NCBI GenBank assembly: GCA_048886185.1
Contig: JBHLKY010000003.1
Coordinates: 210,595 to 242,594 of the forward strand
Length of the DNA: 32,000 bases
DNA from: Candidatus Hermodarchaeota archaeon
GTDB lineage: Archaea; Asgardarchaeota; Heimdallarchaeia; Hodarchaeales; Hodarchaeaceae
Direction: 5' to 3'
Each line of letters begins with the position of its first letter. The first letter of the stretch is position 1. Made by a program: the position numbers and the translations under genes. This document shows positions 5,932 through 25,453 of this stretch, piece by piece. The notes beneath the pieces were generated by a model. That model ran no database searches. It saw nothing but the letters and a program-made list of their open reading frames with translations, and was not told the DNA's origin.

Positions 5932-6081
5932 TAGATCACATTCTTATGAATTAGGAATCTTGCTGTTGGTAGCAAGTTTTCACTTCCAACAAGGTTCATT
6001 ATTCTTACAATTTTACCTAAAAAATTCTTGCCTTTAATGATAGCAGCTTTAGTGTTTGGACTATAATATTCAGAAATATAA

Positions 6082-7503: not shown

Positions 7504-7729
7504 CAGGAATGGAATTGTTCAAACAAATTATACAAATCTACAGATAACTGAAATAACTAAATTAAAGAAAACATTCAATTCTAATTCTTGTTTTAAATCA
7601 TGATATCTCACTTATAACCATTTTATCGGTCATTTTCAAAAATTCTGAATGATTAAGAATAATAGATTCAATGAATAGAAAATAGTGAAAACCTCAATAT
7701 TGTCAAATAAGGAATTATTTTCCAAATAA

Positions 7730-8272: not shown

Positions 8273-8328
8273 TTCTGTTCACACATATCCCATTCATAAT
8301 AAATGCCTATGAGTGATAGTTTCTTTAA

Positions 8329-8757: not shown

Positions 8758-8891
8758 GTACTTAACCACATTCTATTCTTTCTAGTCAACTATTATGGTT
8801 TCTAAGGAGTCATCTAATTAACTTTTCATTAATCTTCCATTCAGATAATTGATTAGCTTGAATATTGTGGAAAAAATTTCATTTTTGTTAA

Positions 8892-9341
8892 CTATATAGC
8901 ACTATTTCCAATATAATCATTTAAACATTCATTACAGAGAGAATCAGCTTGCCTTATAAACTGATTTTCTCGCGTAACATAATAGAATGAGACTTTTTCA
9001 AACATAACCACTAATTCATGCACTTTTCTACATAGTTGCGACAGATGGTCTTTTTTAATCTGATAGTCCCTGTTAATTTGATTAATCACCAATTCGCTGT
9101 CAGAATACAATTTAATCTTCCCTTTCGTAAATTTTCGAGCTTCCTTGAGAGCTTCAACAATGGCAAGGTATTCAGCTTGATTATTTGTGTTTCTACCTAT
9201 GAATTTAGATCCACTATGCCACTGCTTACTATTAATTACAAAGATATATCCGATTGCAGCAGGTCCAGGATTTCCTCGTGATGCACCATCAGTAAATATT
9301 CTCAAAATTTTATTTGTAGGGATATTCAGAATGTTTGACAA
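8892..9341 (-). CDS. rnhA: Ribonuclease HI (archaeal/actinobacterial type)
   Basis: FTDGASRGNPGPAAIG, TNNQAEY, SDSELV and RENQ...ADSL motifs carry the D-E-D-D catalytic set. Confidence 0.93.
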   Translation of the reverse strand: MSNILNIPTNKILRIFTDGASRGNPGPAAIGYIFVINSKQWHSGSKFIGRNTNNQAEYLAIVEALKEARKFTKGKIKLYSDSELVINQINRDYQIKKDHLSQLCRKVHELVVMFEKVSFYYVTRENQFIRQADSLCNECLNDYIGNSAI

Positions 9342-9675
9342 AAGAAAACACTCACAATCTTACTTTATAGAAATAATAAACTTAGTCTCTTCTAACTCCT
9401 CCATAGTTCAGCCCGCTGACCAATGCCTTGACCAACTAGTTCAACACTTTCACTAAAGAATAAAAAAGCAGTAAAAAATATAACTACCACTAAAATAAGA
9501 TTTTTATTTTCTCGTTTTAAGTTTTGAAGAGTAAAAAAAATTCAAAAATATAGTGCAAAATTGCTATTTTTCAAGTTTTATAACCTGTTTTTGCATGCCT
9601 TGAAATACAAAAAGTAACTAGAAAACAAAGAAAAGCATACCAAAATCCAACTGATAACATTCTATTGGAAAATTG

Positions 9676-9712
9676 GACACTCCTCAAACTACCTGAGGTT
9701 TGGTTCGCTTAA
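9676..9712 (+). repeat. Dispersed 93-bp repeat family, partial copy J
   Basis: GACACTCCTCAAACTACCTGAGGTTTGGTTCGCTTAA: 28/37 ungapped identity to copy D. Confidence 0.7.
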
Positions 9713-9872
9713 ACCAAACTATTAGGAGATAAAATGTCTATTCTTTATTATGTTAGAAACAATATAATCTTGAGTACAAAATGCACTTTTTTCCTCCTAC
9801 CATATTTAAAAATTCAATACTAAAAAATGAGGATAGAGAGTTGGACTTCATTCATTGAAGGGGCTTAATTGA

Positions 9873-10154
9873 ATGTATCGATCCTGTTTGTATTTAATTA
9901 AAGGGGAAGAGATTCATTATTGTCTGAGGTTGAAAGAATGGAATGAACTCTGTCCACAAAGGTGTCCATTTTACAAACAGGGGGAACCAGGAAGTCTAAA
10001 AGAGGTGAAAATACAGCGATATGCCATTGATTGCCTTCAATTGACCCGATGGATCAACACAAATGATGAGGCTGAGTATTGGTGTAAAATCTACTATACA
10101 AATCGGCCCACGTGTCATAGCGAAAGTGTAAATCACTGTCGTTGGATACATTAA
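9873..10154 (+). CDS. Small Cys-rich protein, probably two tandem metal-binding modules
   Basis: 93 aa with 8 Cys arranged as two similar C...C...C..C units (CLYL..YC..CPQRCPFY and CLQL..YWC..C..CRWI). Confidence 0.7.
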   Translation: MYRSCLYLIKGEEIHYCLRLKEWNELCPQRCPFYKQGEPGSLKEVKIQRYAIDCLQLTRWINTNDEAEYWCKIYYTNRPTCHSESVNHCRWIH

Positions 10155-10417
10155 AGTCAAAAGAAACAAATAGACATTTCATTTGGAAATCTGGCTTATT
10201 TGAGTTGCAGTAAACTCCTTCTTCCAATCGAATACCCAGGTGCCTTTTGAGTGGACTAAAAAAGAAAAAAAATTTTTAAGAAGCATCCTGATATACATTC
10301 AGAATTAAATATTCCCAATTCTATAAAAAAACCCCAAAAAACTAGAGTCATACTAGATGGGTAATGAAATCACCCACAAATGCGATGTTCTATTAGAAGA
10401 CAGACGGTTCTTATTTT

Positions 10418-10447
10418 ACCTGATGATTGGCTCACCTAATTTCCATA
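10418..10447 (+). repeat. Dispersed 93-bp repeat family, partial copy K
   Basis: ACCTGATGATTGGCTCACCTAATTTCCATA: 23/30 ungapped identity to copy D; weaker similarity extends left to about 10386. Confidence 0.6.
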
Positions 10448-10506
10448 TTTCACTAGGAATTATTATCAAAAAATTAAAATGTAAAAACTTTAAAAAGAAA
10501 AAGTAA

Positions 10507-10528
10507 ATACTTTAATTCGATAAAGTAT
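10507..10528. promoter_or_regulatory. Perfect 8-6-8 inverted repeat overlapping the start codon of the wHTH-MNT gene (putative autoregulatory operator)
   Basis: ATACTTTA-attcga-TAAAGTAT; a TATA-like aaaactttaaaaag lies just upstream. Confidence 0.6.
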
Positions 10529-11276
10529 GCGTGAATTAATCGATCTCCATTCTTATGAATTATTAAAAGAATTTCAAGCCACTCCTCAGAATACATTTCA
10601 TAATTTAAACGCTATCATAACTAACACTACAACCCTAACCAACCGATTAAAGCAATTAATCTTGCTAGGAGTGTTAGAAAAAAGTAAACGTATGTACAAA
10701 TTGACAACAAAAGGAAAAAAACTCATTGATCTCCTAGATGAAGCCACACAACTTATTAAAATACCAAGAAAAGATCCCAGTCCTTTCGAAAGAATTCCAA
10801 ATACACATATCATCGAATTGTTGGAAGACTATATTATTCTCCTAAAAAGATATTTCAAGGAAACCCTTCTGTGTGTCATCTTATTCGGATCATGTGCCCA
10901 AGGAAACTGGAATGAGGAGAGTGATATTGATCTGATTATAATTGTTGAACATTGGGAGATCCCTTCTTGGGAAAAATCACGAGAACTAATTAAGGTTAAG
11001 AATAAGCTACGAAAGCGTGATACATATAAAAATTTGAGAAGGAAAGGGTATTATTTTCCCATATCACACTACCCTCTGTCAGATACAGAAATTAAAAGAT
11101 TTCATCCAATATTTTATGATGTCGTCCTAGATGGAATCATTCTTTATGAAAAAGATCAATTTGGTTCTCACCTCCTCAAACACTATCAAAAAGAACTGGA
11201 AAATAAACAAGCGAAAAGGATAATGAAACCAAACAAAAAGAGGTATTGGATACTTGAAAAAGAAAAAGGTGACTGA
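10527..11276 (+). CDS. Winged-HTH fused to a minimal nucleotidyltransferase (MNT antitoxin)
   Basis: N-terminal HxlR-like wHTH (TLTNRLKQL..LGVLEK...YKLTTKG); Pol-beta superfamily motif LFGS.....ESDIDL. Confidence 0.88.
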   Translation: MRELIDLHSYELLKEFQATPQNTFHNLNAIITNTTTLTNRLKQLILLGVLEKSKRMYKLTTKGKKLIDLLDEATQLIKIPRKDPSPFERIPNTHIIELLEDYIILLKRYFKETLLCVILFGSCAQGNWNEESDIDLIIIVEHWEIPSWEKSRELIKVKNKLRKRDTYKNLRRKGYYFPISHYPLSDTEIKRFHPIFYDVVLDGIILYEKDQFGSHLLKHYQKELENKQAKRIMKPNKKRYWILEKEKGD

Positions 11277-11679
11277 GAGATCACAACTAGCATTAAGTCG
11301 TGCACAAAACTGGCTTCAAGGCGCCCAACGAGGGAAAGAAGATCAACGCTGGGATGATTGTGTCTATAATGCCCAGATGGCCGCAGAACACGCAATCAAA
11401 GCATTATTCTTAAAATTAGGAATCATTTACAAACGAATTCATGATGTCACAGACACCTTTCGAAACATGACAGAGAATGAGGACCTTCCCAAAAAATTTC
11501 GAGAGAAGATTCCAAATATTGCAGATCAAATAGAAGAACTCACAGAACAACGAAATCTGGCAGGATATGGGTTTGAAGAGGGAATTGCTCCAGATCATTT
11601 CAAAGAATATGCACCAATCGCCTTAGATTGGGCAACTGACATTGTAACTCAGGTGGGTAATGTGTTACAAGAACTTTAA
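11269..11679 (+). CDS. HEPN domain protein (toxin partner of MNT)
   Basis: A...AQMAAEHAIKAL...HDV...RNLAGY pattern; the GTG start at 11269 overlaps the MNT stop (GTGACTGA), implying translational coupling. The track ORF starts at 11254. Confidence 0.88.
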   Translation: MTERSQLALSRAQNWLQGAQRGKEDQRWDDCVYNAQMAAEHAIKALFLKLGIIYKRIHDVTDTFRNMTENEDLPKKFREKIPNIADQIEELTEQRNLAGYGFEEGIAPDHFKEYAPIALDWATDIVTQVGNVLQEL

Positions 11680-11740
11680 TCTAATATTATCCCATGCCTC
11701 CTATTATAACACAAAAAATCAGATCATTTCTTTAGTACTG

Positions 11741-11785
11741 GAAGCGTGACACTCCTGAAGCATCCTGAAGAGAGGATTTCCTTAA
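11741..11785 (+). repeat. Dispersed 93-bp repeat family, partial copy F
   Basis: GAAGCGTGACACTCCTGAAGCATCCTGAAGAGAGGATTTCCTTAA shares GAAG..TGACACTCCTGAAGC with copy A and the downstream blocks with copy C (1-nt insertion). Confidence 0.7.
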
Positions 11786-12081
11786 AAATCTGGATACATT
11801 AAGATTCAGCCCATTGGGTGTTGGAAAATTCGATAGCCCGAAGAATAGTTTGATTCAAGAAATCTTGTTCCTGACAGTCGAAGGTATACATCACAAATCC
11901 ATCATACGTAAAAAAGAAGATACGCTTAACATGATAGATAATGGTAGGACGAGCAATTTCAACTAAATCCAGAAATTATTTTCTGCGAAATTTAAATCGA
12001 TAGGAGCTGGTATGAATTGATGCAGCAGTGGCTCCAGCTGCGCCTGCATTATAAGCTATTTAGAGTTAATATCTGTTTTAA

Positions 12082-12237
12082 AATAGTAAAAGCGGTTTTG
12101 TATATATCCATGGAGGTGGGAACTCAATAGGAACCGCTGCTACAGTTGACTATTATGGTAATGCGGTAGCAGGGAAATCTAACTTATTATATACAAAGCA
12201 TATGGATCTGAGAACTGGCCCCGCTGATCCAACGTAA
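12082..12237 (+). pseudogene. Short remnant resembling a type-B carboxylesterase N-terminal region
   Basis: The frame reads GFVYIHGGGNSIGTAATVDYYGNAVAGKSNL...RTGP, like the esterase VYIHGGG..G.A..Y.G..LA.K.N...RLGP segment. It is bounded by stops and has no start codon. Confidence 0.4.
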
Positions 12238-12381
12238 AGGCCTTAAGCAGCAGTTCGTGAGCTTGGAAGAAGATTTTGGAAAAAATAGAATCTCCTATTT
12301 TCAGGCGAGGACTAGACACTAAGTTTGTATTCCTAGGCGAGATTTTTAAACTCAAAATGCAGACAAAAGGGAGTTTTTCGA

Positions 12382-12390
12382 TTATATAAA
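12382..12390 (+). promoter_or_regulatory. Archaeal TATA box upstream of the 881-aa gene
   Basis: TTATATAAA ends 35 nt before the ATG at 12425. Confidence 0.5.
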
Positions 12391-12424
12391 GACAGGAGAG
12401 AATCTATACCAGAGGCATCCAGCA

Positions 12425-15070
12425 ATGCTTAGAGATATGCTCATCCACGCACCTCGAGAAGAATATGGCCGACGAATGAAACTAGTATGGAAAGTGTTAG
12501 AAGATAAGTCAACACTCTTCGTGATGCAAAAACCAAATTATAACAAAATGGAAGTGCCTTGGGCTCCACTAGCGGAAATGGTATCAATTTTTGCCATCCA
12601 GCCAAGGAGAGATTTCACAAATGCAGCGAAAACGTTGTCACTAGTGAATAATGAAGAAGGAGTGGTAGTAGTAAAAGAAGTATTCCCTGTACAGAAAGTT
12701 AACTCAAAATATAATGACAAAGAGGTTTCTGATACGGCTGTTCTTACCTTGGTTTTCGCTTTTACTCAATTCTGGGTCAAATCAGATAGTTTGCTACCTC
12801 TACTCGCACAGGAGGCCCGAAAAAAGCTTGCCCGAAAGCGCTCAACAACTCACTCTATACTTAAAGGGAGCGGATTTAAAGTAATGTTAATTACCGAGGA
12901 CAAGCTTAGTCAAATCTATTTCCGTAGAGGGAAAGTCCCCGAGGGCATCACGGTCTTTAAGAGCCATAAAGGGTTTCATTCCAAATTATCGGATCTATTC
13001 CTCAGACTTAATCGAGTTCCAACACGGGAAATCCAGGAATACCCGATCCCTGACCTAGCTGTGACCCACAAAATCGGAAACCAAAGACAAAATCCAAAAC
13101 GACCAGTTGGGTTCCCACCATTAACCACAGGCCCCGTGTTGGTGTGTGGTTCAGATAAGTATGAAGTGATAAGAGTAATACAACAGCTGATCAATTCAAT
13201 ACGAACCGTAGGAACATCCAAACAGATATTTATACTTGACACCCACAGTGAACTGAACGGCCTCATACATCACATCCACAGGTATCCCCAACGGGCAATT
13301 CCATTACAGGTGTTTCGGTTAGGTACCAATATCCACCTCAACCTCTGTGATGTGATAGTCCCAACAACTCCCATGGGAGAACAGCAAGAACGAAAGGCAT
13401 GGGCAGCATGGAAATCACACCTCATTAGCCAGATCTTACTGAGTTCACTACACACATCAGAATATCTGACAGCCCGATATGCAGTGCCATTGGAAGCTCA
13501 AATCAGGAAAACAGCGGAAAAAAATCACCTGTTCACACTCAAAGACGTGAGTCTTAGCTTTGGGGGAATGAACGAACCCCATGTTCAGGAAAACACTGAT
13601 GAAACCAATATGATGTATGCAGATATGATGGCCATCGAGGCAATCGTGGGAGTCTTGGAGCAGTTTCGCTCATTTCCTGAAGTGAACTATCCCTCCTTTA
13701 CAGGACATTATGGAAATACCTTGGTAGGGGAAGAAACACTGACAGTATTCCAGTTTGGTACTCAACCTCCACTGATACGGCAAGCAACCGTGGGATTCCT
13801 CCTCCACTACCTCTCACAAACCATGAAAGATGGATGTGTAGTTCTAACACACGCTCCCGAGTTTCTGAACGCGCAATCCACGTATAAACGAGAGCGAAAA
13901 ATTAGTAGCTCAATTACCTTAGAAGCATGTGATACAATCGCTGCACAAAATGTCCTTATACTTGCAAGTCAACGACTACTGGAAATGATGAACGACGAGC
14001 TGTTTGATGGTATAAAAAATATATTGTACTTACCCCTGATGAATGAACAGGATAGACGACTCGTGATCACACGTCACGAATTGAAGCTAAAAACTCACAA
14101 CCAGCAGGATCGAAAAAGCCAATCTTTAGGAATTACGGAAGGTGAAGGATTGTTGTTCCGCGAAGACGCACCACAAAACATAGGATTCCATGTGAAACTA
14201 GATACAGCAATCCCAATCGATCTGAACCCGATTCATGTAAGTGAAACAAAACAACGGGGTTCTGAAACATTCGGACTCCCCCCTCTGAAATATGAATTAC
14301 TCATGAAAATATTAAAATTATTAGTTAACCATCCGAGTCGTACGGAAGACATTTTAGACCTACTAGAAACAACGAAACAACGAGAAATCTCTCTAAACCA
14401 ATTCCAATCACTCGGATTATTCACGACAGAGACAGATCGAGGAGCGACCTATTGGGTCATCACAGACAAAGGACGGGAATATTACTCGAAACAACACGAT
14501 TTTGTGAACCAACTGCCCGCCCCATTGACAAAGGGAGAAGTCGGACGCGTTCCCGAGGAATTAAAACGTTTAGAATCGTTCAATGATATTTCCTCCTCGT
14601 ACGATGAGCGATTGGAGACCAATAGGAAAGTGAAAACACTCATTGGGAAGCTTCTCAATTATACCCAACAACTGCGCGCGACCTCCATACCATGGATGCG
14701 GGTTGGGGAATATCATGACCTACTCATGATCGAGGCGTTGGAATGGCAAGATTTTCGGAACCTATTCGATCTGGCACACACCATGGTCAATAATCTGTTG
14801 TTGGAAATTACCCAACTGCAAAAAGAACAGTCAGATAAGGAAATCCAAGCACGTCTAGAAGCAGCCGCCCTACAAGTCGACCCAGCCAAAAAAAATCTGT
14901 CCGACTACTTACCTGAGGAGAACTATCTTCGTCTACAACACCTCTCGCAAGAGTTCGGTCTACCATCTTACCCCAGCACAGGAATTCTTGATCTATACTA
15001 TACTCTCCATACACAAAGACGTTCTTTAATTGGCGAACTGGGAAAAAGCTGGAAAATAAATGACAAATAA
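12425..15070 (+). CDS. HerA/VirB4/TrwB-like (DUF87-type) ATPase-fold protein with degenerate Walker A/B, followed by a winged-helix and a helical tail
   Basis: GPVLVCGSDKYEV (Walker A position, no GK[ST]); IFILDTHSEL (HerA-like DxHGEY); CVVLTHAPEF (Walker B position, no DE); LILASQR (sensor); YWVITDKGREYY (wHTH wing). Confidence 0.65.
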   Translation: MLRDMLIHAPREEYGRRMKLVWKVLEDKSTLFVMQKPNYNKMEVPWAPLAEMVSIFAIQPRRDFTNAAKTLSLVNNEEGVVVVKEVFPVQKVNSKYNDKEVSDTAVLTLVFAFTQFWVKSDSLLPLLAQEARKKLARKRSTTHSILKGSGFKVMLITEDKLSQIYFRRGKVPEGITVFKSHKGFHSKLSDLFLRLNRVPTREIQEYPIPDLAVTHKIGNQRQNPKRPVGFPPLTTGPVLVCGSDKYEVIRVIQQLINSIRTVGTSKQIFILDTHSELNGLIHHIHRYPQRAIPLQVFRLGTNIHLNLCDVIVPTTPMGEQQERKAWAAWKSHLISQILLSSLHTSEYLTARYAVPLEAQIRKTAEKNHLFTLKDVSLSFGGMNEPHVQENTDETNMMYADMMAIEAIVGVLEQFRSFPEVNYPSFTGHYGNTLVGEETLTVFQFGTQPPLIRQATVGFLLHYLSQTMKDGCVVLTHAPEFLNAQSTYKRERKISSSITLEACDTIAAQNVLILASQRLLEMMNDELFDGIKNILYLPLMNEQDRRLVITRHELKLKTHNQQDRKSQSLGITEGEGLLFREDAPQNIGFHVKLDTAIPIDLNPIHVSETKQRGSETFGLPPLKYELLMKILKLLVNHPSRTEDILDLLETTKQREISLNQFQSLGLFTTETDRGATYWVITDKGREYYSKQHDFVNQLPAPLTKGEVGRVPEELKRLESFNDISSSYDERLETNRKVKTLIGKLLNYTQQLRATSIPWMRVGEYHDLLMIEALEWQDFRNLFDLAHTMVNNLLLEITQLQKEQSDKEIQARLEAAALQVDPAKKNLSDYLPEENYLRLQHLSQEFGLPSYPSTGILDLYYTLHTQRRSLIGELGKSWKINDK

Positions 15071-15315
15071 GGGAATGATTGAAAAAATTAGACTCTTGGC
15101 TACTATGAGGCAAGGTGACCTGTAATCAAATACTTTATCTTAGAATATGCCCAGGTACCTTTTAAACAACTGAATTCAACCTATTCATGGGATATCTATA
15201 ATTCTGGATAATAAAACTTCTTATAGTTCTGATTCAAAGTGACAAAGGGAGTACCAATATGGTATGGCTCCTTCATATAAGGATAGTTGAAATGAGAGAC
15301 ATCTTCTTGGGAATC

Positions 15316-16368
15316 TTATTTTTTGGAAAAAGCCTGAAAACGCTTTAATACAGGGATTGAGACCAAAACTGCCACGAGAGTAACGAATCCTGATCGCCAG
15401 GTAATTCCAGAAGAAAAATCAGTTGATTCCGAGACAATGGATTCATGGGTCACGCCAGAAACAAAATCCGTTGTTTCAGTGAGCTTGGATTCAAGAGTAA
15501 CGGAAGGAGTTATGGACTGATCAAAATAATGAAAAATCAGTGTATTTGTGAAATCTAATAATGAGTCGAGAAAAGAACTCGCAACAGGGATGGTACAGAT
15601 ACGTTGCCCTGAACAGGTATCATCATCAACCCGCTCGCGTATTTTTGTTTGCAAAGTTGCATTCCAAGTAATGGTCAGAGTATTCTGATATCCCCCTCCA
15701 TCACACATAGCATCTGGAGTCCAATACTTCCAAGATTGCCACCGGTGGGCTAGATTAGTCAGTAAATAATTACACCACTCTCCCCATTCAGAATACAAAA
15801 TCTTTACTCGAAGAGAAAAGGGGGACGGATAAGGAAAATAGTCAGGGTTAAGATCTTGATAGTTATATCCATAATTTAAGAATTTATAGTCTATAAACGC
15901 TGAACCATTAGCAAAGTAAGAAGCACTCAAACGACTCGCACCGAACCAGCAATTAAATTTATCATACACAAGCTGTAACTTGACAGGCCCATCTACAGGG
16001 AGGGGAGGAGAAGACCAGGATAGATTATATAGACCAATGAGGTTAGAGTTAACAAAAAAAGCTATACTCCCACTCCCATCCGAAGATAGGGGAGTATCGA
16101 ACCAATATAAGCGTCTTGCTCCCGAAGAGAGCGCGAGAGTGTCACTAAAGCCCCATGACGTGAGAATAGAGACATTGAGAGCTTAATCCTTTGTTACAAG
16201 GAAAATGGGAAAAAATTGTGTTGTGATAACATTATTAACCATCCAAGTGATCTCAAACTCCTCAGAGGTTAATGTCATGGTTTCTAAGTCGCCTTTAGAC
16301 CAGATTAATAAGCCCGAGAGAAAGATACCAACAATAAAAATTGAAAAAATGGCACGGGACCCCCGTAT
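15316..16368 (-). pseudogene. Interrupted gene for a secreted, C-terminally anchored surface protein (351 codons)
   Basis: The track ORF 15316-15969 continues upstream in frame through one TAA (16183-16185) to a signal peptide [ATA]RGSRAIFSIFIVGIFLSGLLIWSKG. The ATA at 16366-16368 sits 8 nt after AGGAGG, so it is probably a mutated ATG. The C-terminus is S/T-rich + SGF + TM + KR. Confidence 0.75.
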
Positions 16369-16477
16369 CTTTAGCTCCTCCTAATTTCTTTCAGAACTTA
16401 CTTCCATAGTGATGAAATAAGGAATTATCATTAATAAATCAATTGATAGATGTAATTCTGAAACACAACAAAAACAG

Positions 16478-16570
16478 ACAGATATTAGGCCGATTTGCTC
16501 ATCTAAGAAGATTGACACTCCTGAAGCCAAATGACGATAGGTACGCAAAATTTCCAAACGGTTAACCCTT
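16478..16570 (+). repeat. Dispersed 93-bp repeat family, full copy A
   Basis: ACAGATATTAGGCCGATTTGCTCATCTAAGAAGATTGACACTCCTGAAGCCAAATGACGATAGGTACGCAAAATTTCCAAACGGTTAACCCTT; aligns without gaps to copies C and D over 93 nt. Confidence 0.85.
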
Positions 16571-16628
16571 GCACGATCAGTAGGGGACTAATTATACTTA
16601 TAAGATTACCTCATAAACAATGAAAGGC

Positions 16629-17231
16629 TCATTTATTATAATTTTTTCCAATACTAAAGGCTTTAGCAATGGAGTTTCCTAAAATCCAATATTCCCCTGA
16701 TCCAATTAATAAGGGGTTGACTTTTTTGATATCTGCGGAACATCTAGCTATATTGCTGCCAGTAAGATATTGCTCTCCAATATATGCCTCAACTATCTCA
16801 GCAAAGAAGATATCTCCCTCAGGAAATACATCAGATAAATGTTTAATAACTTGGCATTCAAAGTTTATTGGACATTCCATGATCATAGGTGCCGATCTGA
16901 GTGTCCCATAGAAAGACTGGAAAACTGTTGACTTATCTACATTGTGTCCCGAAACAGTACCACAATAATCAGTTACTTGGACTAATTCCGCTGAAGGGAT
17001 ATTCACACTAAAAGACTTATTTCCTTTGATACCTTGAGTTGTATAGTGTTGTTTTGCAGTAGAAATATAGATGGTTGGGGGAGCAGATATCCGAAGCACC
17101 CCAAAATTACCAATCACATTATATGTAGGTTTATTGTTGACATTAGCGCCAATTAATATAATTGGCATAGCAGGTAGTATTAACTGGGGACCACATTTGA
17201 TTTTTTCACTACTCTCATTGGTAATATTCAC
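16629..17231 (-). CDS. Flavin reductase-like FMN-binding protein (flavoredoxin family)
   Basis: P.P..LIGA, HYT..GI..N..FSVNIPS, DYCG.VSG...DK and AP.I.ECP.N.EC motifs. Confidence 0.9.
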   Translation of the reverse strand: MNITNESSEKIKCGPQLILPAMPIILIGANVNNKPTYNVIGNFGVLRISAPPTIYISTAKQHYTTQGIKGNKSFSVNIPSAELVQVTDYCGTVSGHNVDKSTVFQSFYGTLRSAPMIMECPINFECQVIKHLSDVFPEGDIFFAEIVEAYIGEQYLTGSNIARCSADIKKVNPLLIGSGEYWILGNSIAKAFSIGKNYNK

Positions 17232-17407
17232 AAGTCAACCTCCATAGATGCAAGACCATATCATATCAGTTAATTCTGGGACATTGTACTTTTAAATTTT
17301 GAACATAACCAAGAAAAAATGGTTATTAGCCATCTCATTAACCATTCCCCGAAAACCCCAAAAACCTTCAAATATGATACAGATTCACTCATACAAGACA
17401 CTACTGG

Positions 17408-17466
17408 CTCCTTACGCCATCTGATAATAATTCCATTGAATTTCCACAATTTTTGAGAAAATTAGC
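17408..17466 (+). repeat. Dispersed 93-bp repeat family, partial copy I with the variant palindromic right end
   Basis: CTCCTTACGCCATCTGATAATAATTCCATTGAATTTCCACA aligns without gaps to the core; the last 28 nt (17439-17466) are 27/28 identical to 22306-22333. Confidence 0.7.
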
Positions 17467-17475
17467 CGTGTACGA

Positions 17476-18126
17476 TTAGTGGTCTTTAGATTTATTTCGT
17501 CGTTTTAGCAGCACAAAGGAAGTACAGAGAAGAAGAAGAAACTGCCATCTAAGTGAAGAACTAGTCGTAATCGTGGCTAATTCAGTCGTGGTTGAGGTAA
17601 AACGTGAGGAAGTAGGTAATGGCCAGGTGGGGAGACTGTGAAAAAGACCCTGGGAACTGAATGAAGTCCAGAAAATACCCATGTTTACAGTTGTGATCTT
17701 TACATAAAATAGTCCATCATCTATGAAATTAGTGTTCGACGATCCGTTTATAAGAAAAGCGTGAGAGTTACCAGACAAGAGTGTGATAGAGGGGGATAAA
17801 TCAATAATTACACGAGTATAATTCCAAGTTTGGCCATAGGAAGTGATTACCTGAGTAATTTCAAGCTTGGTTAATTCAGTTGGGATCTCACCGTTATAAT
17901 GGAGACGAAAAACTACTTGTCGAAAGGAAGGGATATCACCAGGACTAATAGTACCAGTATAATTGGGGGGAATGGGTACTCCAATATCACACATAAAATC
18001 TAAATGGCCAACAACCTCTCCCTGAAATACTGAATCCGTACCAGTAACAGAACCAATGAAAAGTAAAAAAGTACAACTGAAAAGGCATATTTGGAGGAAA
18101 AAGAGTGGACGGGCTTCCATTTTCAT
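17476..18126 (-). CDS. Hypothetical secreted protein with a Thr/Ser linker and C-terminal TM + basic tail
   Basis: N-terminal hydrophobic signal; ends TTTTELATITTSSSLRWQFLLLLCTSFVLLKRRNKSKDH. Confidence 0.8.
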   Translation of the reverse strand: MKMEARPLFFLQICLFSCTFLLFIGSVTGTDSVFQGEVVGHLDFMCDIGVPIPPNYTGTISPGDIPSFRQVVFRLHYNGEIPTELTKLEITQVITSYGQTWNYTRVIIDLSPSITLLSGNSHAFLINGSSNTNFIDDGLFYVKITTVNMGIFWTSFSSQGLFHSLPTWPLPTSSRFTSTTTELATITTSSSLRWQFLLLLCTSFVLLKRRNKSKDH

Positions 18127-18220
18127 TCACTCCTCACTCTAGGGATAATATCGGGGAAGAATTATATAAAATTTGTTATTCCCGAAAGAATTCCATTTCC
18201 CAAAAATAAATCAAAAGCCT

Positions 18221-18311
18221 ACAGAGATTAGACCGAACCTGCTCTAACAGAAGCTACTAACTCCTTACAACCATCTGAGACAAGAAACATCTCAATTTTC
18301 ACCTAGTCGCC
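18221..18311 (+). repeat. Dispersed 93-bp repeat family, copy B (degenerate 3' half)
   Basis: ACAGAGATTAGACCGAACCTGCTCTAACAGAAGCTACTAACTCCT matches the left half of copy E; the right half is more diverged. Confidence 0.8.
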
Positions 18312-18467
18312 ATTATACGATTAATGGGATACAACTTTAAACAATTAAACTCAGTTAACAAAAGATCCTAAACAGTTAGTACAAGCTGAATTTTAACATA
18401 ATTTCCCCATGAAGCGAGGTTACAACTTTTCAAACTTAAAAGATTCTTGGAAAGGAAAACCGCAATA

Positions 18468-19349
18468 ATGAAACGTGTAATTATCAATATGGATCCTGGA
18501 ATGGGAGTAAAGTATCGGGACATAGATGATGGTATAGCACTCCTTTATCTCATGACTTCACCTGATATTTCAATTGAAGGTATTACAATCAATTTTGGAA
18601 ATACTCCTTCAGAACAGGGGTATCAGATAGCACGAACACTTCTAAAGATGACAAAAAGCACTATTCCTTTATTTAAGGGATCACAATCAAAGGCTGACTT
18701 GGGAAAACTCAATCCCTCAGTTGAATATTTAATAAAAACAGTGATTGAAAATCCAGGAGAGATTTCTTTATTAGCTACAGCACCCCTGACCAATATTGCA
18801 ACAGCAATGATGTATGAAGAGGAATTTATGGACAATCTATCTGACCTAATTATTATGGGAGGGACATTAAAATTCAGACCATTTTCATTTTTTGGAGAAT
18901 TTAATTTCCACTTAGACGCTAAAGCAGCAGCATTAGTATGTACAACCCCTATTCATAAGACATTAATTACTATGGATGTCTGTTCACAAACCGTTTTCCA
19001 ACAACAGCATTTAAACAAGCTAAAACAAAAAACGACAATTGTTTCCAAATATCTAATGAAAATTATTCCTCATTGGTTGGAACTAAACAAAAAAATTTTT
19101 TGGAGGGCCAAAGGGTTTTTTCCATGGGATGTAGTAGCTGCGCTTTATTTAACAGATGACCATTTATTTGATAGGAACCCATACACTTTGTCAATTCGTG
19201 AAACTGGTGTCCGCTCTGGTAGTATTCAAAATGTCATCCCCCGTGATAGTTTTAAGTCAATTAATGGACGGATACCCCTTAATATTCCTCTTCAGTTGAA
19301 ATACAATTTGGCTATGGAAAAAATTATCTCCACATTATATGACTTTTAA
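18468..19349 (+). CDS. Inosine-uridine-preferring nucleoside hydrolase family protein
   Basis: MDPG...DIDDGIAL, GEFNF..D..AA and PWDVVA motifs. The ATG at 18468 is likelier than the TTG at 18447 used by the track. Confidence 0.9.
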   Translation: MKRVIINMDPGMGVKYRDIDDGIALLYLMTSPDISIEGITINFGNTPSEQGYQIARTLLKMTKSTIPLFKGSQSKADLGKLNPSVEYLIKTVIENPGEISLLATAPLTNIATAMMYEEEFMDNLSDLIIMGGTLKFRPFSFFGEFNFHLDAKAAALVCTTPIHKTLITMDVCSQTVFQQQHLNKLKQKTTIVSKYLMKIIPHWLELNKKIFWRAKGFFPWDVVAALYLTDDHLFDRNPYTLSIRETGVRSGSIQNVIPRDSFKSINGRIPLNIPLQLKYNLAMEKIISTLYDF

Positions 19350-19403
19350 CATACTAGAAGCTAAATTGATAAGAGATATTTTTTCCTTAATTTAGATTTC
19401 GAA

Positions 19404-19496
19404 GTTAAACACAGACCGAATGCTCTCTACTTGAAGCAAACGACTCCTGAAGTTATCTGACGAAAGGCCCACTTAATTTCCGCACGACTAGCCCTT
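19404..19496 (+). repeat. Dispersed 93-bp repeat family, near-full copy C
   Basis: 19413-19496 is 64/84 identical, without gaps, to copy D (24061-24144). Confidence 0.88.
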
Positions 19497-21119
19497 ACGC
19501 CTTCGGATTACATTCACTAATGTCACTACAAATAATGTGATGACACCCATTTCAAAAATCTGGAGAAAAAATTGCAGCAATGAGGGAAATCCTGGGGAGA
19601 TGAAGTGAGAACCGCTCGATGAGCTGCATGAGGAAATCATTGCCTTGGTTGTAGTATTGATAAAGCCATTATCAGGTGTGGGTTGGATTGAAGAATGAGG
19701 AGACAAAATATTAGACGTAGGGTCTCCATTCTCAAATATAAAGATAGCTCCAGAGGTGGTTGCATACCAAAAGCCTTGAGTACAACTAGCATTGACTCGG
19801 ATGAGATACTGAGTTCCATTCCCCACAGTGGTACTATCCCAGATATATGACGTTGTGCTGAGGTTTGCAATTAAGATGATCCAGGAGATGCCCTTATCTG
19901 TGGAATAGGAAACCAAATAAGTGATTGGATGACTATTTAAATCAGTTGCAGGAGTCCATTGGAGTGTGATGTTCCCTGAAAAAATTGGTCCACCGCTAGG
20001 ACTAATGATTACAGCAGGTAGGAGATGATAGGGAGTAACTAAAGGCGAAAGATCTGAATTAGTTTCTATTCCTGGAATGGGATAAGGTTGATCAACAATC
20101 CCATCCATATTAGCATCAGGAGTGATCCAGTCATCCCAAAAGTTATCTGAAAAATGATTATTTGAACCCTGGTCTGCCGTTTGGGATCCCCCCCTATTAT
20201 TTCCTAAGAACATATTGGCTTGAATCTTGTTGTTATTACTTCTATGTGTAAGCTCCACCCCATAATCACTGTTGTTGGCAAAATAGTTGCCAGAGAGAAT
20301 ATTTCTCGAAGATTGAAGGTAAATACCACTTCCACTGTTGTTAATGATCATGTTTCCAGACAGGATACCATATCCAGAACCATCTAGGTAAATACCAAGC
20401 TCATTATTGTTACTAATGGTATTTCCCGTCAACAGACAATATATACCAACTAGATCAATTCCCCAATAATTATTGGAAACAAAGTTGTTGGATAAAGAGA
20501 TACCCCTAGATTGAAGAATTTGAATACCCATTTCAGTGTTATTAGCGATAATGTTACTTGATAAATGAGTATTAACACAGAAACGAAGGACAATTCCTCT
20601 TCCATTGATATTAGCGATAGTATTATTAGACATACCGATATTTTCAGAGTAGCTAATAAAAATTCCAAAGCCGTGATTAATGACTATATTCGACAAAATG
20701 TATCCATTTGTAACATTCTGAAAATAAATACCATAATATCCGCCATTTAAAACACAATTGCGGATTTGAAAATAAACATCAGTATTACTAATTTCTATCA
20801 ATCTCCTGGTTGGGTAGCCAGTAATATTAAGACCATCAATGATGAACGGAGCTGACGGGGTTCCCTCTCCAGTCCAGTTCTCTTCTTCTATAAGAGTTTT
20901 GAACTCTTCATTTCCATTAATTGAGAGAGGTGAATGGATTACATGTTGAATTAAGACTGGAGTAGATGGTTGGTTATTATTTTTCCCAATGTTGATTCTT
21001 GAAGACCATCCAGAGGACATCACATTAATTGGACAGAGAAAAGAAATGAAAAACAGAATCACTGAGATTTTGGTAAAAAACATTTTACTATGAATGAGCT
21101 GTTTTAACTCTAGGTACAA
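19488..21119 (-). CDS. NosD-like right-handed beta-helix surface protein with an FnIII-like domain and C-terminal anchor
   Basis: GEGT...PFII, many parallel beta-helix repeats (GI.L..S.N....N.I.NN), N.WDDW, an FnIII-like ITLQW...Y.V.YS segment, SPGF + TM + RRRKG. Confidence 0.88.
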   Translation of the reverse strand: MYLELKQLIHSKMFFTKISVILFFISFLCPINVMSSGWSSRINIGKNNNQPSTPVLIQHVIHSPLSINGNEEFKTLIEEENWTGEGTPSAPFIIDGLNITGYPTRRLIEISNTDVYFQIRNCVLNGGYYGIYFQNVTNGYILSNIVINHGFGIFISYSENIGMSNNTIANINGRGIVLRFCVNTHLSSNIIANNTEMGIQILQSRGISLSNNFVSNNYWGIDLVGIYCLLTGNTISNNNELGIYLDGSGYGILSGNMIINNSGSGIYLQSSRNILSGNYFANNSDYGVELTHRSNNNKIQANMFLGNNRGGSQTADQGSNNHFSDNFWDDWITPDANMDGIVDQPYPIPGIETNSDLSPLVTPYHLLPAVIISPSGGPIFSGNITLQWTPATDLNSHPITYLVSYSTDKGISWIILIANLSTTSYIWDSTTVGNGTQYLIRVNASCTQGFWYATTSGAIFIFENGDPTSNILSPHSSIQPTPDNGFINTTTKAMISSCSSSSGSHFISPGFPSLLQFFLQIFEMGVITLFVVTLVNVIRRRKG

Positions 21120-21216
21120 ATTCTTCCCATCTCAATAATCAGGAATTAGCTTTTCTACTATAAGAAGATTCTGAAAATGAAGAAATATGTTAGAAATTCT
21201 TTAGCTAAAATGGGTA

Positions 21217-22035
21217 TCAAATTTCTTTAGAAAAGGGTTTGTCCTTAAACAACTCTGATCTAGCTTTTAATACTTTTAGAGTTAAATCGTAAAAAATTTG
21301 GCTAGTAATTTTTTTATCGCTTGGTTTAATCTCATAATACGAAAATCCCATCTCTTCTACTAGTGACTGTTCATCTGTAATAATCTCTTCAAAAAGCTCT
21401 TCTTTAGTAGGATGTAGAGACCTGTCGTTTTGAATCTTGAGAAAAGTGGGTGTATAAACCTCCTTCATGATAAATCCTACTATTGCAATAGGAATTGAAA
21501 GGTGAATACTTTTAATTTCTTTGTACCAATCGTTCACTGCATTGAAAGAATCTCTATTGCTCTTATCAAAAGTAATAACAGCTGCTGATCCATGATAATA
21601 ACTTAGTTGGCATTTTCTAAAAAACTCTTGACTAGCTATATCCATGAGTATTAGCTTAATATTGTTACCATCTACCTGAATCTGTTTGGTCATAATGTCC
21701 ACTCCCTGAGTAGGTAAATGATTAGTAGTAAATTTCCCTTCAGCATAGCTCCGAACCCAGTTATTCTTCAACTCACTTGGATAACCTATTAGACAGATTT
21801 TCAACAATTCTTTAGGGGGATAACAAGCCTTACAGGCCAAATTTAAACACTTAATTTTCTCTCCCCTTCTGTTTCTAAAAAACTCTTTGAATCTAGCCCC
21901 ACAAAACAAACATTCTTGCCGTCTAATCCACCCTCTTTGTGAAATTAAGGTGATACAGAACTCACACGTGTGTCTTTGACAGCGAGAACACTGAATAAGA
22001 AAAGTATCCCTTCCACAGATCTGGCATTGATTCAT
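21217..22035 (-). CDS. Cys8 zinc-finger (FYVE-like spacing) fused to a Rab-like pseudo-GTPase
   Basis: N-terminus C-x2-C-x8-C-x2-C-x4-C-x2-C-x14-C-x2-C. The GTPase domain has PTQGVD, TKQIQVDGNNIKLILMDIASQE and YYHG..A..FD...SF, but the P-loop reads GYPSELKN and G4 reads GFIMK. Confidence 0.82.
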   Translation of the reverse strand: MNQCQICGRDTFLIQCSRCQRHTCEFCITLISQRGWIRRQECLFCGARFKEFFRNRRGEKIKCLNLACKACYPPKELLKICLIGYPSELKNNWVRSYAEGKFTTNHLPTQGVDIMTKQIQVDGNNIKLILMDIASQEFFRKCQLSYYHGSAAVITFDKSNRDSFNAVNDWYKEIKSIHLSIPIAIVGFIMKEVYTPTFLKIQNDRSLHPTKEELFEEIITDEQSLVEEMGFSYYEIKPSDKKITSQIFYDLTLKVLKARSELFKDKPFSKEI

Positions 22036-22260
22036 ATTTTCCCTTCTTTTATATATCCAACAAAATTCCCTTTTCGTAATTTAAGGTGCCTATTGTAATA
22101 AAAGATTATCTCGAGAATCTCTCAGAGTTTCTAGAAGATATTTCCTCGATTTTGAACTGGAGATAAGAAATTTCTAATTTTTTGTCGGAATTCCAACATT
22201 ATTCCCTAAAATACAATCTTATCAGACAGAAACCAAATCATTTCTGCTTTAATTGAAATA

Positions 22261-22333
22261 AACGACTTATAAAGCCACCAGACGATAGCTTTTCTCATAA
22301 ATCTTAATTTCCACAATTTTTAAGAAAATTAGC
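22261..22333 (+). repeat. Dispersed 93-bp repeat family, partial copy H with the variant palindromic right end
   Basis: AACGACTTATAAAGCCACCAGACGATAG is 23/28 identical to copy E; a short insertion follows, then CTTAATTTCCACAATTTTTAAGAAAATTAGC. Confidence 0.75.
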
Positions 22334-22559
22334 ACTTGAACTCAATGAACATTATTGTTTAGAGACATTTCGAAAGCGTTTCAGTATAGAGATTAAGACT
22401 AACACAACTAAAAGAGGGATGAATAAGCCTTTTATACTTGATAGGTCCTATTATCATAAACAATTACATCAGTTAGCTGAAACGAGACCCATAGGGAGAC
22501 AGGACAACCAGAATCTGTTATTACAGCAGAATTATTGATGCCAAACATATCGAAATAGT

Positions 22560-23201
22560 ATGGATGAAAACATTATGATAAGAACGGAAGGGTTTCTTCA
22601 ATGGATTGAAGAGAGTTTTACAAGCCCACAGGAGTTTAGACTGACTTATTCAGGGGAATTACCATATGGACGGAATTTCAATCTCCGTTTTAAGAGAACT
22701 AGTTCATTAATGAAAGGAAATCAATGGTACCTTTTCAAAGCATTACCCTCAGAACTAACTGTTGAAACAGCTTATCAGCTTGCAGTGGAAAGAAATCAAG
22801 TAATAAAAGGAAAAAGCAAAATTCTCAAATTTTTAGTGGATTTTCTCGTGTTTATCTATGTCTCTGAGAAATCCATACCTCAAAATGTCTTGGATTGCCT
22901 TGGAAATTTCTATTCGGTGAAAAAAAGGCATTTTCAGAATGTTCATGAAGTGAACTTCTTTCTAGATACTTCAACTGGATATTACACCAAACCCAAACGA
23001 ACAGGGTATTTTGGGTGGATTCCGTTAAAGAGATTGATAGGAGAGGTTGAAAGGTTTATTTTTGAACCTTACAACCAATGGATTCAGTCAAATCAAGGAA
23101 GTAAGGAACAAATCGCAAACTTTTGTCATAATTGTGGACAAAAAAACACTGACAAGTATAAATACTGTGAGAAATGTGGAGCGAATCTCGTGTCCCAGTA
23201 A
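22560..23201 (+). CDS. Hypothetical protein with a C-terminal double zinc ribbon
   Basis: Ends CHNCGQKNTDKYKYCEKCGANL (CxxC-x10-CxxC). Confidence 0.8.
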   Translation: MDENIMIRTEGFLQWIEESFTSPQEFRLTYSGELPYGRNFNLRFKRTSSLMKGNQWYLFKALPSELTVETAYQLAVERNQVIKGKSKILKFLVDFLVFIYVSEKSIPQNVLDCLGNFYSVKKRHFQNVHEVNFFLDTSTGYYTKPKRTGYFGWIPLKRLIGEVERFIFEPYNQWIQSNQGSKEQIANFCHNCGQKNTDKYKYCEKCGANLVSQ

Positions 23202-23226
23202 CATAGAGAACATACCAAAACAAAAC

Positions 23227-23245
23227 CAATTTTTCAGAAAATGAG
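23227..23245. repeat. Third copy of the palindrome CAATTTTT-N-AGAAAAT-K-AG found at the right end of copies I and H
   Basis: caatttttcagaaaatgag vs caatttttgagaaaattag (17447) and caatttttaagaaaattag (22314). Confidence 0.4.
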
Positions 23246-23334
23246 TATTGGCGCGATTAGTGTTAAACATGTTGGTCGAAATTATTGTCCAAAATCTCAA
23301 TTCTAAAGAAAAATCACGAGGTTAACAAAGGTTA

Positions 23335-23356
23335 TATATCTATATATGTAGATATA
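23335..23356. promoter_or_regulatory. Perfect 8-6-8 inverted repeat overlapping the vapBC TATA box (putative operator)
   Basis: TATATCTA-tatatg-TAGATATA, overlapping aaaggTTATATAT and ending 12 nt before the antitoxin ATG. Confidence 0.6.
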
Positions 23357-23368
23357 GACTGAAGAAGA

Positions 23369-23611
23369 ATGGTATCTAAAACAATCTCAGTAACCGAAGA
23401 GGTATATATGCTCCTCAAACGAATGAAATTACCTCACGAAAGCTTTGGAGAGACGATCGAAAGATTATGCAAGAATTTTACAACAGAAAACTTGCTAAAA
23501 TGGTATGAAAACACAGATGGGTGGAAAGACATGACTAACGAGGAGTTCCATGAAATCGATGAGGTAATAACAGATTTCGGAAAGAATTTTAAGCCCCAGA
23601 AAGCGGATTAA
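23369..23611 (+). CDS. vapB: Archaeal VapB-family antitoxin (DUF217-like)
   Basis: KTISVTEEVY..LK.MK...ESF...I.RL signature; lies immediately upstream of a PIN gene. Confidence 0.88.
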   Translation: MVSKTISVTEEVYMLLKRMKLPHESFGETIERLCKNFTTENLLKWYENTDGWKDMTNEEFHEIDEVITDFGKNFKPQKAD

Positions 23612-23613
23612 CA

Positions 23614-24027
23614 ATGATCTTGGTTGATAGTACATTTTTAATTGATGCATTACGAAAAAAGCCCAATGTGCGAAAATTCCTACAAAAAAATCCAACAGAG
23701 ATATTATTTACGACAGAAATAAATGTTTTTGAGTTATATCTAGGATTACATTCAAGTAAGATCCTAGAAAAAGAGGTAGCTCTTTTCGCAAAACGAAAAC
23801 AACCTCTGGAAGAATTGATCACGAAATTCCAAGTACTCTCATTTAGAAGAGGGGAAGCAATAGAATCAGCAAAAATTCTAGGAAAACTGTATAGATCGGG
23901 GAAACCAATTGAGTTTCGTGATGGGCTAATTGCAGGGATAGCTATTGCAAATGGTATAAAGAAAGTACTGACAAGGAATACTGACCATTTTAGACGAATT
24001 AAAGAGATTGAAGTACTATCCTATTGA
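23614..24027 (+). CDS. vapC: PIN-domain VapC toxin
   Basis: ILVDSTFLID, E (VFELY), D.LIAGIA and LTRNTDHF PIN motifs. Confidence 0.92.
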   Translation: MILVDSTFLIDALRKKPNVRKFLQKNPTEILFTTEINVFELYLGLHSSKILEKEVALFAKRKQPLEELITKFQVLSFRRGEAIESAKILGKLYRSGKPIEFRDGLIAGIAIANGIKKVLTRNTDHFRRIKEIEVLSY

Positions 24028-24051
24028 AGACAAAAACACACTAAAAAGTGG

Positions 24052-24144
24052 ACAGATGTTAGACCGAAGGCGCTCTAGCAGAAATAAAGGACTCTTTAAA
24101 CTACCTGACGAAAGGTTCGCTTAATTTCCACACGGGGAGCCCTT
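24052..24144 (+). repeat. Dispersed 93-bp repeat family, full copy D
   Basis: ACAGATGTTAGACCGAAGGCGCTCTAGCAGAAATAAAGGACTCTTTAAACTACCTGACGAAAGGTTCGCTTAATTTCCACACGGGGAGCCCTT; begins 25 nt after the vapC stop. Confidence 0.88.
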
Positions 24145-24590
24145 GGAGCAGCTAAAAAAGGATATTACTTTGTTTGAGACTTTTGAATAATACCTACGAC
24201 CATTCCAAGGAAAAATAAGACAGCTGCGGTATTCTGAATATGATATCCAGTAAATGACGGAATAACAGGTTTGGAATTACTCCTAGTAACCTCCACAACA
24301 ATATGGCGCTTAAGACTTCCGTTATGAATCAGAATGTTTGAATAATAATTACAGGAACCAGAACTATCGTGTTAAAAAGAAGAAGAATCATTCCAAAGAC
24401 AGCTGCTAGGATCAAACCCCTCTTTGATTTCACCCAACGCGCCACTCAAATATTGGATGATTCATTAGAATAATAAAAGGCTGTCGAATAGTAAGTTCTA
24501 TTCTCAGGACAGATACAACATTACACGACGTCAAACAGAAAGAGAGGGAAAGACAACAGTGTTACCATAATGAAATCGACCTTTTCATGA
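24145..24590 (-). pseudogene. Possible decayed membrane-protein gene
   Basis: Minus-strand frames give TM-like segments (GLILAAVFGMILLLFNTIVLVPVIIIQTF*; TAAVLFFLGMVVGIIQK) broken by several stops and a frameshift; no family recognised. Confidence 0.3.
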
Positions 24591-24724
24591 GCTTGAAGAA
24601 TTAGTACAAGAATTTTTTGACTTATAAGACACTTTCTTTTTACCTATTAGTTTTATTCTGAATGGATTATTGGTTCTTATTGCTTATTGGTGAGATCTTC
24701 TTGATACTCCATTTATCACTGAAG

Positions 24725-25204
24725 TTAACCAGCCACTGCCAAATATCTGTCATAAACCCACCATACAATAAAAAATACACCAAAAATTATCCAATCAATA
24801 ATCCAGAAGAGGGGAATCGGGAAATCAATTTGAAAAAGATCCCATAAGGGGGTCCAGAGTGGATCACCGAATTTCCATGTACCTTGAAAAAGGGCCTTAG
24901 TCAGCCAGTGGCCAATATCTTGAAAAAATTGGACTAAAAAAGCACCACCAATAGTCAATAACCAATCAGTTTTCTCTCGGGTGAGGAATGGAACGATAGA
25001 TAACATCAAAAAAATAAAAAACGCGTAAAGCATCCAATAGAACGGAAAATTATGGAGTTCATAATCCAAATAATAGACAAATGCCTGGGCTTCAATACCT
25101 CCAAGTAGTAAGGCAATCAAACCAGCCCAAATGATAATTATAGCCTTATCAAATCTATCCAAGTCGATACGACGATTTTTCATTGCAGTTACACCTGATT
25201 TCAA
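24725..25204 (-). CDS. Hypothetical polytopic membrane protein (about 4 TM)
   Basis: 159-aa ORF dominated by hydrophobic segments; the start may be the internal MKNRRI. Confidence 0.75.
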   Translation of the reverse strand: MKSGVTAMKNRRIDLDRFDKAIIIIWAGLIALLLGGIEAQAFVYYLDYELHNFPFYWMLYAFFIFLMLSIVPFLTREKTDWLLTIGGAFLVQFFQDIGHWLTKALFQGTWKFGDPLWTPLWDLFQIDFPIPLFWIIDWIIFGVFFIVWWVYDRYLAVAG

Positions 25205-25391
25205 ACAATAGTTATCAGTTTGAAATAATTGATTATAATTATAAGTGATTACTGCTGAAAAAAAGTGAAAAAAAGATAAAATCTAGTAAAAAAACACCTA
25301 TTGTATTTTCCCCAAACCTCCATAAAATATGATTAGCAATGAAGGAAACACGTGAATTTAATAATTTACCCGAAAAAAAGACATAAAGCGT

Positions 25392-25453
25392 ACAGATATT
25401 AGACCGAAAGCGCTCTCAGAGAAGCTAACGACTCCTGAAGCCACCTGACGATA
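25392..25453 (+). repeat. Dispersed 93-bp repeat family, copy E (3'-truncated)
   Basis: ACAGATATTAGACCGAAAGCGCTCTCAGAGAAGCTAACGACTCCTGAAGCCACCTGACGATA, the copy closest to consensus; similarity stops abruptly after GACGATA. Confidence 0.88.

Follow-up and report, generated by a model that had tools for sequence, protein, structure and literature searches.

Integrons are the textbook collectors of single genes, and islands at tRNA genes are the textbook collectors of large elements. The locus described here lies in a 32,000-nucleotide (nt) stretch of DNA (hereafter the window) from a Candidatus Hermodarchaeota archaeon of the order Hodarchaeales (GenBank assembly GCA_048886185.1, contig JBHLKY010000003.1, positions 210,595 to 242,594 of the forward strand). 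It carries an array of co-oriented repeats that bound small cassette-like units; these repeats reproduce, away from the gene itself, the 3' end of the 23S rRNA gene together with its trailer. Archaeal integrons rely on attC sites and the integrase IntI (Ghaly et al. 2022, PMC9668308). Tandem genomic islands at the 3' ends of tRNA and tmRNA genes have been described as well (Williams 2002, PMC100330; Islander, PMC4383910), and integrase-less relatives are represented by the cis-mobilizable elements (CIMEs; PMC5704250) and the tycheposon arrays of Prochlorococcus (10.1101/2020.12.28.424599).

The array has traits of all three. As in integrons and in clusters of attC sites lacking integron integrases (CALINs), the units are small and mostly hold a single gene, the junctions point in the same direction, the cargo is diverse and includes toxin-antitoxin (TA) pairs, and the cassettes reassort across genomes. 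Unlike in these systems, there is neither an attC hairpin nor IntI, the junctions are conserved in sequence and derived from rRNA, and the cassette genes lie in either direction and appear to have their own promoters. With tRNA and tmRNA islands, the array shares a displaced 3' copy of a stable-RNA gene that keeps the orientation of the gene, units stacked, in a relative, behind the intact gene, and copies that mark the unit ends. It differs from them in its 23S rRNA target, in units of one to three genes (median 1.25 kb) instead of islands of 10-100 kb, in the lack of an integrase in any unit, and in a series of ~30 or more successive units. CIMEs and tycheposons likewise comprise att-flanked cargo without an integrase of its own, arranged in tandem at an RNA-gene site and presumably mobilised in trans; the present array, however, belongs to an archaeon, uses a 23S tail as its site and has much smaller and far more numerous modules, and the genomes analysed here yielded no evident helper element whose integrase would act on the site. 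Full-text literature searches retrieved no account of the 23S rRNA 3' end serving archaea as an integration or cassette site, and rRNA goes unmentioned in a comprehensive review of archaeal tyrosine recombinases (PMC8371274).

A repeat search followed by profile searches, with a profile built from the repeat copies, identified one repeat family of ~125 nt with 11 significant copies in the window (7469-25453). Window coordinates are used throughout unless a contig (C) or extracted locus (L) is named; G000 is the source genome (4.84 Mb, 75 contigs) and other G numbers denote relatives. All 11 copies match the profile on the plus strand (chance ~1 in 1000), and their 23S-sense direction is the minus strand, the same way as the rRNA gene. 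Strands of copies are given below in the 23S sense. The letters are those of a preliminary description made from the sequence of the window, which correspond to profile copies as follows: J 9676, K 10406, F 11736, A 16471, I 17414, B 18214, C 19413 and D 24045.

7469 to 7505, minus strand: partial copy of the 23S trailer (model 69-105, E 2e-5), which accompanies the MFS gene in G003 and G008
9621 to 9712, minus strand: tail/trailer copy J (model 5-95, E 8e-10), without the 23S-tail end
10387 to 10447, minus strand: degenerate copy K (model 43-103, E 2e-4)
11715 to 11780, minus strand: partial copy F (model 26-91, E 7e-9)
16460 to 16581, minus strand: full copy A, 23S tail plus trailer (E 7e-24)
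17353 to 17481, minus strand: full copy I, with an A/T-rich insert of ~14 nt (E 6e-14)
18200 to 18326, minus strand: full copy B (E 4e-18)
19412 to 19500, minus strand: copy C (model 31-119, E 6e-22), containing the stop codon of the beta-helix gene
22205 to 22316, minus strand: copy without a letter (model 2-104, E 5e-12)
24040 to 24145, minus strand: copy D (model 11-116, E 8e-25), with the vapC stop codon 13 nt before it
25374 to 25453, minus strand: copy without a letter (model 5-84, E 6e-20), where contigs of the source run end or branch

All 11 copies are intergenic, often with a gene end 0-50 nt away. The view that the repeats bound cassette-like units is upheld: six of the ten inter-repeat intervals hold one gene or operon (a Cys-rich open reading frame (ORF), the MNT-HEPN pair, a flavin reductase, a 216-amino-acid (aa) ORF, a nucleoside hydrolase and a 159-aa ORF), and the remainder hold two or three ORFs, including vapBC. 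Five such intervals had been listed before; those five stand, but the count rises to six with the 159-aa ORF. Similarly, the copies reported within a span of 9676-25453 are present, but these limits are too narrow at both ends, with a partial copy at 7469 and further copies past the window up to C3:253395 (window coordinate 42.8 kb). Within G000, the family is restricted to C3:218063-253395 and contig C46 (11.7 kb), with weak matches on contigs C7 and C71 as the sole exceptions.

Read on the minus strand, the repeat consists of the last ~28 nt of 23S rRNA followed by ~100 nt of trailer through an oligo-T terminator. This identity came from the relative G008, where the array on contig C8 ends at a 23S gene (L007:13937-14756, minus strand, 328 bits in Rfam, cut by the contig end). 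The final bases of this gene, ...CACUAAUCGCACAAGGGCUAACCGUG, are the reverse complement of the right end of the repeat model. When reverse-complemented, the window copies can be aligned to the genuine 23S ends of both G008 and G005, beginning with CCACTAATCG and continuing across the trailer; the onset of the alignment is sharp, ~28 nt before the 23S terminus, and the alignment extends over ~100 nt of trailer to the oligo-T stretch. Besides and within the 23S tail, the conserved blocks ACAGACATCAGACCGA, GACTCCTGAAGCC, CTGACGATAG and AATTTCCAC can be recognised, and conservation is block-wise. The window copies are ~60% identical pairwise (copies in general 60-75%), and the longest exact matches between two of them are short (median 8 nt, maximum 15 nt). 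In a test for concerted evolution, within-genome copy identity was modestly raised in some genomes and not in G000.

The window itself contains no RNA gene by Rfam at the gathering threshold or by ARAGORN. Other origins of the repeat were considered and rejected: the minus-strand frame is peptide-like but has stops in several copies, and a C/D-box small RNA or tRNA-like reading, judged by eye, shows wrong spacing and no structure. Some joints in relatives hold longer 23S fragments of ~300 nt (model positions 2721-2973). Such orphan fragments, all covering model positions 2721-2973, recur in the genus (G001, G002, G003, G011, G012 and G013); they may form a second, longer class of tail copies, and local alignment may have produced their common 5' limit as an artefact. 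Additionally, the 23S gene of G008 contains an insertion of ~337 nt at Rfam model position ~2650 (L007:14274-14675), possibly an rRNA intron.

In G008, the array abuts an intact 23S gene, and this locus is orthologous to the window. Contig C18 of G008 carries, in conserved order, orthologues of window coordinates -3884 to -2130, of the Ras gene (2858-3433) and of the 229-aa gene (3980-4651), with tail copies interleaved with and then following these orthologues. C18 ends with the same 77 nt with which C8 begins, and this overlap lies outside any repeat copy. From the overlap and the orthology of C18 we conclude that the G008 counterpart of the window is the far end of one ~65-kb array of at least 33 copies that ends at the 23S gene. 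By orthology, the array in the window most likely represents the distal portion of this 23S-anchored structure in G000. The ends of contigs C3 and C46 of G000 overlap no other contig end. The segment to the left of the first window copy is also of interest in this respect:

2840 to 7434, unstranded: Ras GTPase, 229-aa ORF, ADH and MFS genes, a probable older part of the same island

In G008, the Ras gene (2840-3445) and the 229-aa gene (3997-4686) each have an orthologue with tail copies beside it; the same holds for the Ras orthologue in G003, where the MFS gene sits between copies. Along the G008 array, identity to the working trailer shows no age gradient with distance (rho -0.12, p 0.6), and one orphan copy is 97% identical to the working trailer despite a distance of 29 kb.

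Between species, neighbours reassort at the repeat copies. The preliminary description had proposed to look for breakpoints at the repeats, and we carried out this check as a comparison of shared flanks. Of 57 cross-genome copy pairs sharing a 200-nt flank, 21 share the left flank and 37 the right flank, with a single pair keeping both; neighbours do change at the repeats. The ends of shared cassettes are located within ~10-40 nt of the repeat edges. Some cassettes are 92-97% identical between species yet have different neighbours; for example, the protein of the 159-aa ORF is 97% identical to that of a cassette in the 23S-anchored G008 array, where the neighbours differ. A vapBC-like unit (L001:9624-10381) also has a match in G010. 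Only two of 12 close copy pairs stand out in identity; this hints that the unit is a cassette plus the following tail, exchanged near the trailer end, since both outstanding pairs are the copy after the cassette in the 23S sense.

A clean empty site could not be found in G010, in which the genes flanking the array in G000 are scattered over the genome. At one locus of G010, an FGGY kinase gene is directly followed by genes of 120 aa and 618 aa (L008:4397-4725 vs L010:1712-10936), and in G017 ~9 kb with three tail copies lie between the FGGY kinase gene and the 120-aa and 618-aa genes, with the right edge ~34 nt beyond a copy; this is a clean contrast of presence and absence. In contigs of an estuary run, a joint from 16558 to 17474 skips 915 nt and could represent either absence of the flavin reductase cassette or a hybrid-looking copy from elsewhere; the other joints in public-run contigs that lead backwards are other repeat copies. 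Neither kind was used as evidence.

Same-direction arrays of this repeat family are present in 18 of 21 genomes searched from the genus and in none of 20 from sister genera and families. The collection comprises 161 copies from 36 loci; within each locus all copies point the same way, apart from a single exceptional copy. The 118 intervals have a median length of 1.25 kb, and 62 of them hold one ORF. ORF orientation within the arrays is unbiased (113 vs 96), and the 237 ORFs of the cargo fall into 169 clusters, 141 of them singletons. The commonest cargo are Ras-family small GTPases of ~180 aa (26 of 237 ORFs), 23 of these 26 being in the 23S direction. Many GTPase ORFs are tightly bracketed by tails, with gaps of -22 to +40 nt (e.g., 21217-22035 and 7730-8272 in the window and L002:10245-10811), and three Ras-family GTPases occur in tandem in G008 (L007:839-2624). 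The orientation bias of the GTPases may reflect no more than duplication of GTPase-plus-tail units.

Between the copies listed above, the window contains the following units:

7506 to 9620, unstranded: interval with a weakly Ras-like 180-aa ORF (7730-8272, Pfam Ras below cut-off), a 101-aa ORF and an RNase H-like gene (8892-9341)
9713 to 10386, plus strand: cassette with the Cys-rich 93-aa ORF (9873-10154)
10448 to 11714, plus strand: cassette with MNT (10527-11276) and HEPN (11254-11679), assigned by Pfam
11781 to 16459, unstranded: interval with an 881-aa ORF (12425-15070, no Pfam match) and a 217-aa ORF
16582 to 17352, minus strand: cassette with the flavin reductase (16629-17231), also present with its left-hand copy in G012:C336
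17482 to 18199, minus strand: cassette with the 216-aa ORF (17476-18126, no Pfam match)
18327 to 19411, plus strand: cassette with an inosine-uridine nucleoside hydrolase (18447-19349)
19501 to 22204, minus strand: interval with a beta-helix/NosD surface protein (19488-21119) and a Ras-family GTPase (21217-22035)
22317 to 24039, plus strand: interval with a zinc-ribbon protein (22560-23201), VapB (23369-23611) and PIN/VapC (23614-24027)
24146 to 25373, minus strand: cassette with the 159-aa ORF (24725-25204)

Pfam agrees with the named cargo (MNT, HEPN, flavin reductase, nucleoside hydrolase, beta-helix/NosD, Ras-family GTPase, VapB and PIN) and leaves several ORFs without a family match, in line with the earlier view of the cargo as unrelated accessory genes including TA modules. 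Paralogues of the Cys-rich ORF are found inside arrays of G008 and G017 and adjoining an array of G010, and a paralogue of the 216-aa ORF (L001:8028-8648) is likewise bracketed by copies. The MNT-HEPN unit recurs in G010, 83% identical over exactly the inter-repeat interval and without flanking repeats; PADLOC returned only weak matches to the candidate systems PDC-S09 and PDC-M05A, all to the MNT protein. The segment around the 881-aa ORF (12000-15100) is probably foreign, since its GC content is 41-45%, compared with about 33% for the region. Shortly upstream of the ORF (12151-12193), just a 42-nt piece is matched by contigs of three runs, which then diverge on both sides. To the right of the last window copy, a 137-aa ORF (28749-29162) corresponds to a repeat-bracketed cassette in G008 (L006:5348-5764), with no copy detectable beside the window version, and an N6/N4 DNA methylase is split into two ORFs of 149 and 77 aa (29312-30085), probably a pseudogene.

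Of the integron traits tested, the array shows same-direction junction sites between small, reassorting cassettes. A proposed link to the integron core GTTRRRY found no support: the motif occurs 59 times in the window, where 65 are expected, its sole match within a copy (24058) lies in the trailer and not at a cassette boundary, and the TTAG words of the copies are part of the 23S terminus and trailer. The statement that this is not a canonical integron was confirmed, as neither an attC hairpin nor IntI is present. RNAalifold gave no consensus pairs for the repeat copies on either strand, and 14 of 16 single-strand DNA folds were no better than shuffles (z-scores +1.6 to -1.2). No integron integrase was found in G000, where the best match to TIGR02249 (integrase_gron) reaches 97 bits against a cut-off of 265. 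The tyrosine recombinases (PF00589) of G000 are confined to contigs C4, C27 and C70 (an XerA-like protein at C4:43052-43534, a second paralogue conserved in the genus at C27:43458-43904, and one fragment on C70), none of them near the array, and neither an SSV-type nor a serine recombinase was detected in this genome. We also considered as a candidate enzyme a family of ~510 aa without Pfam match that occurs in or near the arrays of four genomes (L004:9390-10922, equal to C3:204389-205918; L008:11559-13100; L012:5976-7514; L010:5711-7315 and 15475-17016). It is present as a single copy in G000, and its neighbours by Atlas feature and structure are archaeal multi-winged-helix proteins (HTH_24/AsnC-type). 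It was rejected, as it resembles a multi-winged-helix regulator and not a recombinase.

A repeat made up of the 23S 3' end plus trailer, and the anchoring of the array on the 23S gene of a relative, bring the array nearer to tandem accretion behind the 3' terminus of an RNA gene than to an integron. With some reserve, we lean towards the reading that cassettes have accreted and been reshuffled by recombination between tail copies, which would serve as att-like landing pads for a trans-acting enzyme not encoded in the array. A circular cassette with one tail copy would recombine with a copy already in place, be it the working 23S tail or an orphan, and its insertion would duplicate the site; recombination between copies could then excise, delete and reshuffle cassettes. 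We prefer a putative site-specific enzyme acting in trans over plain homologous recombination on three grounds: the common ends of the repeat unit are sharp, conservation among the copies is limited to short blocks, and no exact match between copies exceeds 15 nt. The conserved blocks could be protein-binding sites or an inherited constraint of the working trailer. Several observations weigh against this reading. No recombinase was found in or beside any array examined, including the arrays of five relatives, and constraint on the working trailer alone could explain the block-wise conservation. The 23S gene is not assembled in G000, and the anchoring of its array is inferred from G008. Some shared cassettes, such as MNT-HEPN in G010, have no repeat alongside in the other genome. 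The identity profiles of copies beside shared cassettes are barely above background, and these copies are mostly no closer than random ones; the power of crossover mapping from copy-pair identity was too low to place the crossover point. Furthermore, the Logan contigs of public runs, in which joints are ambiguous, contained no excised circle and no cassette-sized polymorphism.

Host homologous recombination alone might produce the same architecture, if circles or linear fragments bearing a tail were to enter by Campbell-style or double crossover with the copies as portable homology. We regard this as possible but the less probable route. It would fit the lack of a recombinase in any array, the variable end points of partial copies and the missing age gradient in G008, and module exchange between tandemly integrated elements is discussed in the review of archaeal tyrosine recombinases (PMC8371274). 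However, copies that are 60-75% identical, with exact matches of median 8 and maximum 15 nt, are a poor substrate for it, and sharp common unit ends at a fixed 23S position speak against it. That the array is a fossil, with 23S tails displaced by ancient, since decayed integrase-bearing elements, immobile today and differing between species by ordinary loss and rearrangement, appears improbable to us. The age of the window copies (about 60% pairwise identity, many truncated) and pseudogene-like remnants such as the split methylase ORFs at 29312-30085 agree with such a history, as do short contigs of close strains from two other studies, which retain the junctions at copies D and F. It is at odds with cassettes that are 92-97% identical between species among different neighbours, with the G008 orphan copy that is 97% identical to the working trailer 29 kb away, and with a one-gene unit size unlike that of decayed proviruses or plasmids. 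With the tools used, we see very little chance that IntI acts here on divergent attC sites in the form of folded single strands, as a genuine integron or CALIN would require. Integrons do occur in archaea (PMC9668308), and same-direction repeats between unrelated genes with TA cassettes are present here, but the copies lack a consensus structure, 14 of 16 folds are at shuffle level, the best integrase_gron match stays at 97 of 265 bits, and it is the sequence that is conserved, not a structure, in a repeat homologous to 23S rRNA. Equally hard to credit is a chance accumulation of a transposable repeat of the miniature inverted-repeat transposable element type or another. While short intergenic repeats with many partial copies would suit it, there are no terminal inverted repeats, the orientation is uniform, only one or few loci exist per genome, and the homology to the 23S tail and trailer points elsewhere.

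The array unites the cassette scale of integrons with the logic of islands at RNA-gene tails, with a 23S anchor and no recombinase of its own. It also accounts for the poor assembly of rRNA-proximal regions in these metagenome-assembled genomes. A more far-reaching proposal, which we consider tentative and rather unlikely in full, is that it represents a working gene-capture platform apart from integrons, in which the 23S tail and trailer would be the primary landing site and orphan tails the cassette sites, driven by a recombinase of an undescribed type or by machinery recognising rRNA-processing signals, and serving as a main route for duplicating Ras-like GTPases and other accessory genes and for exchanging them across species. 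Among the Asgard archaea, Hodarchaeales are the group most commonly regarded as nearest to eukaryotes. An active array would offer a concrete, testable route for gene flux and for the paralogue expansion of Ras-family GTPases, a eukaryote-signature family.

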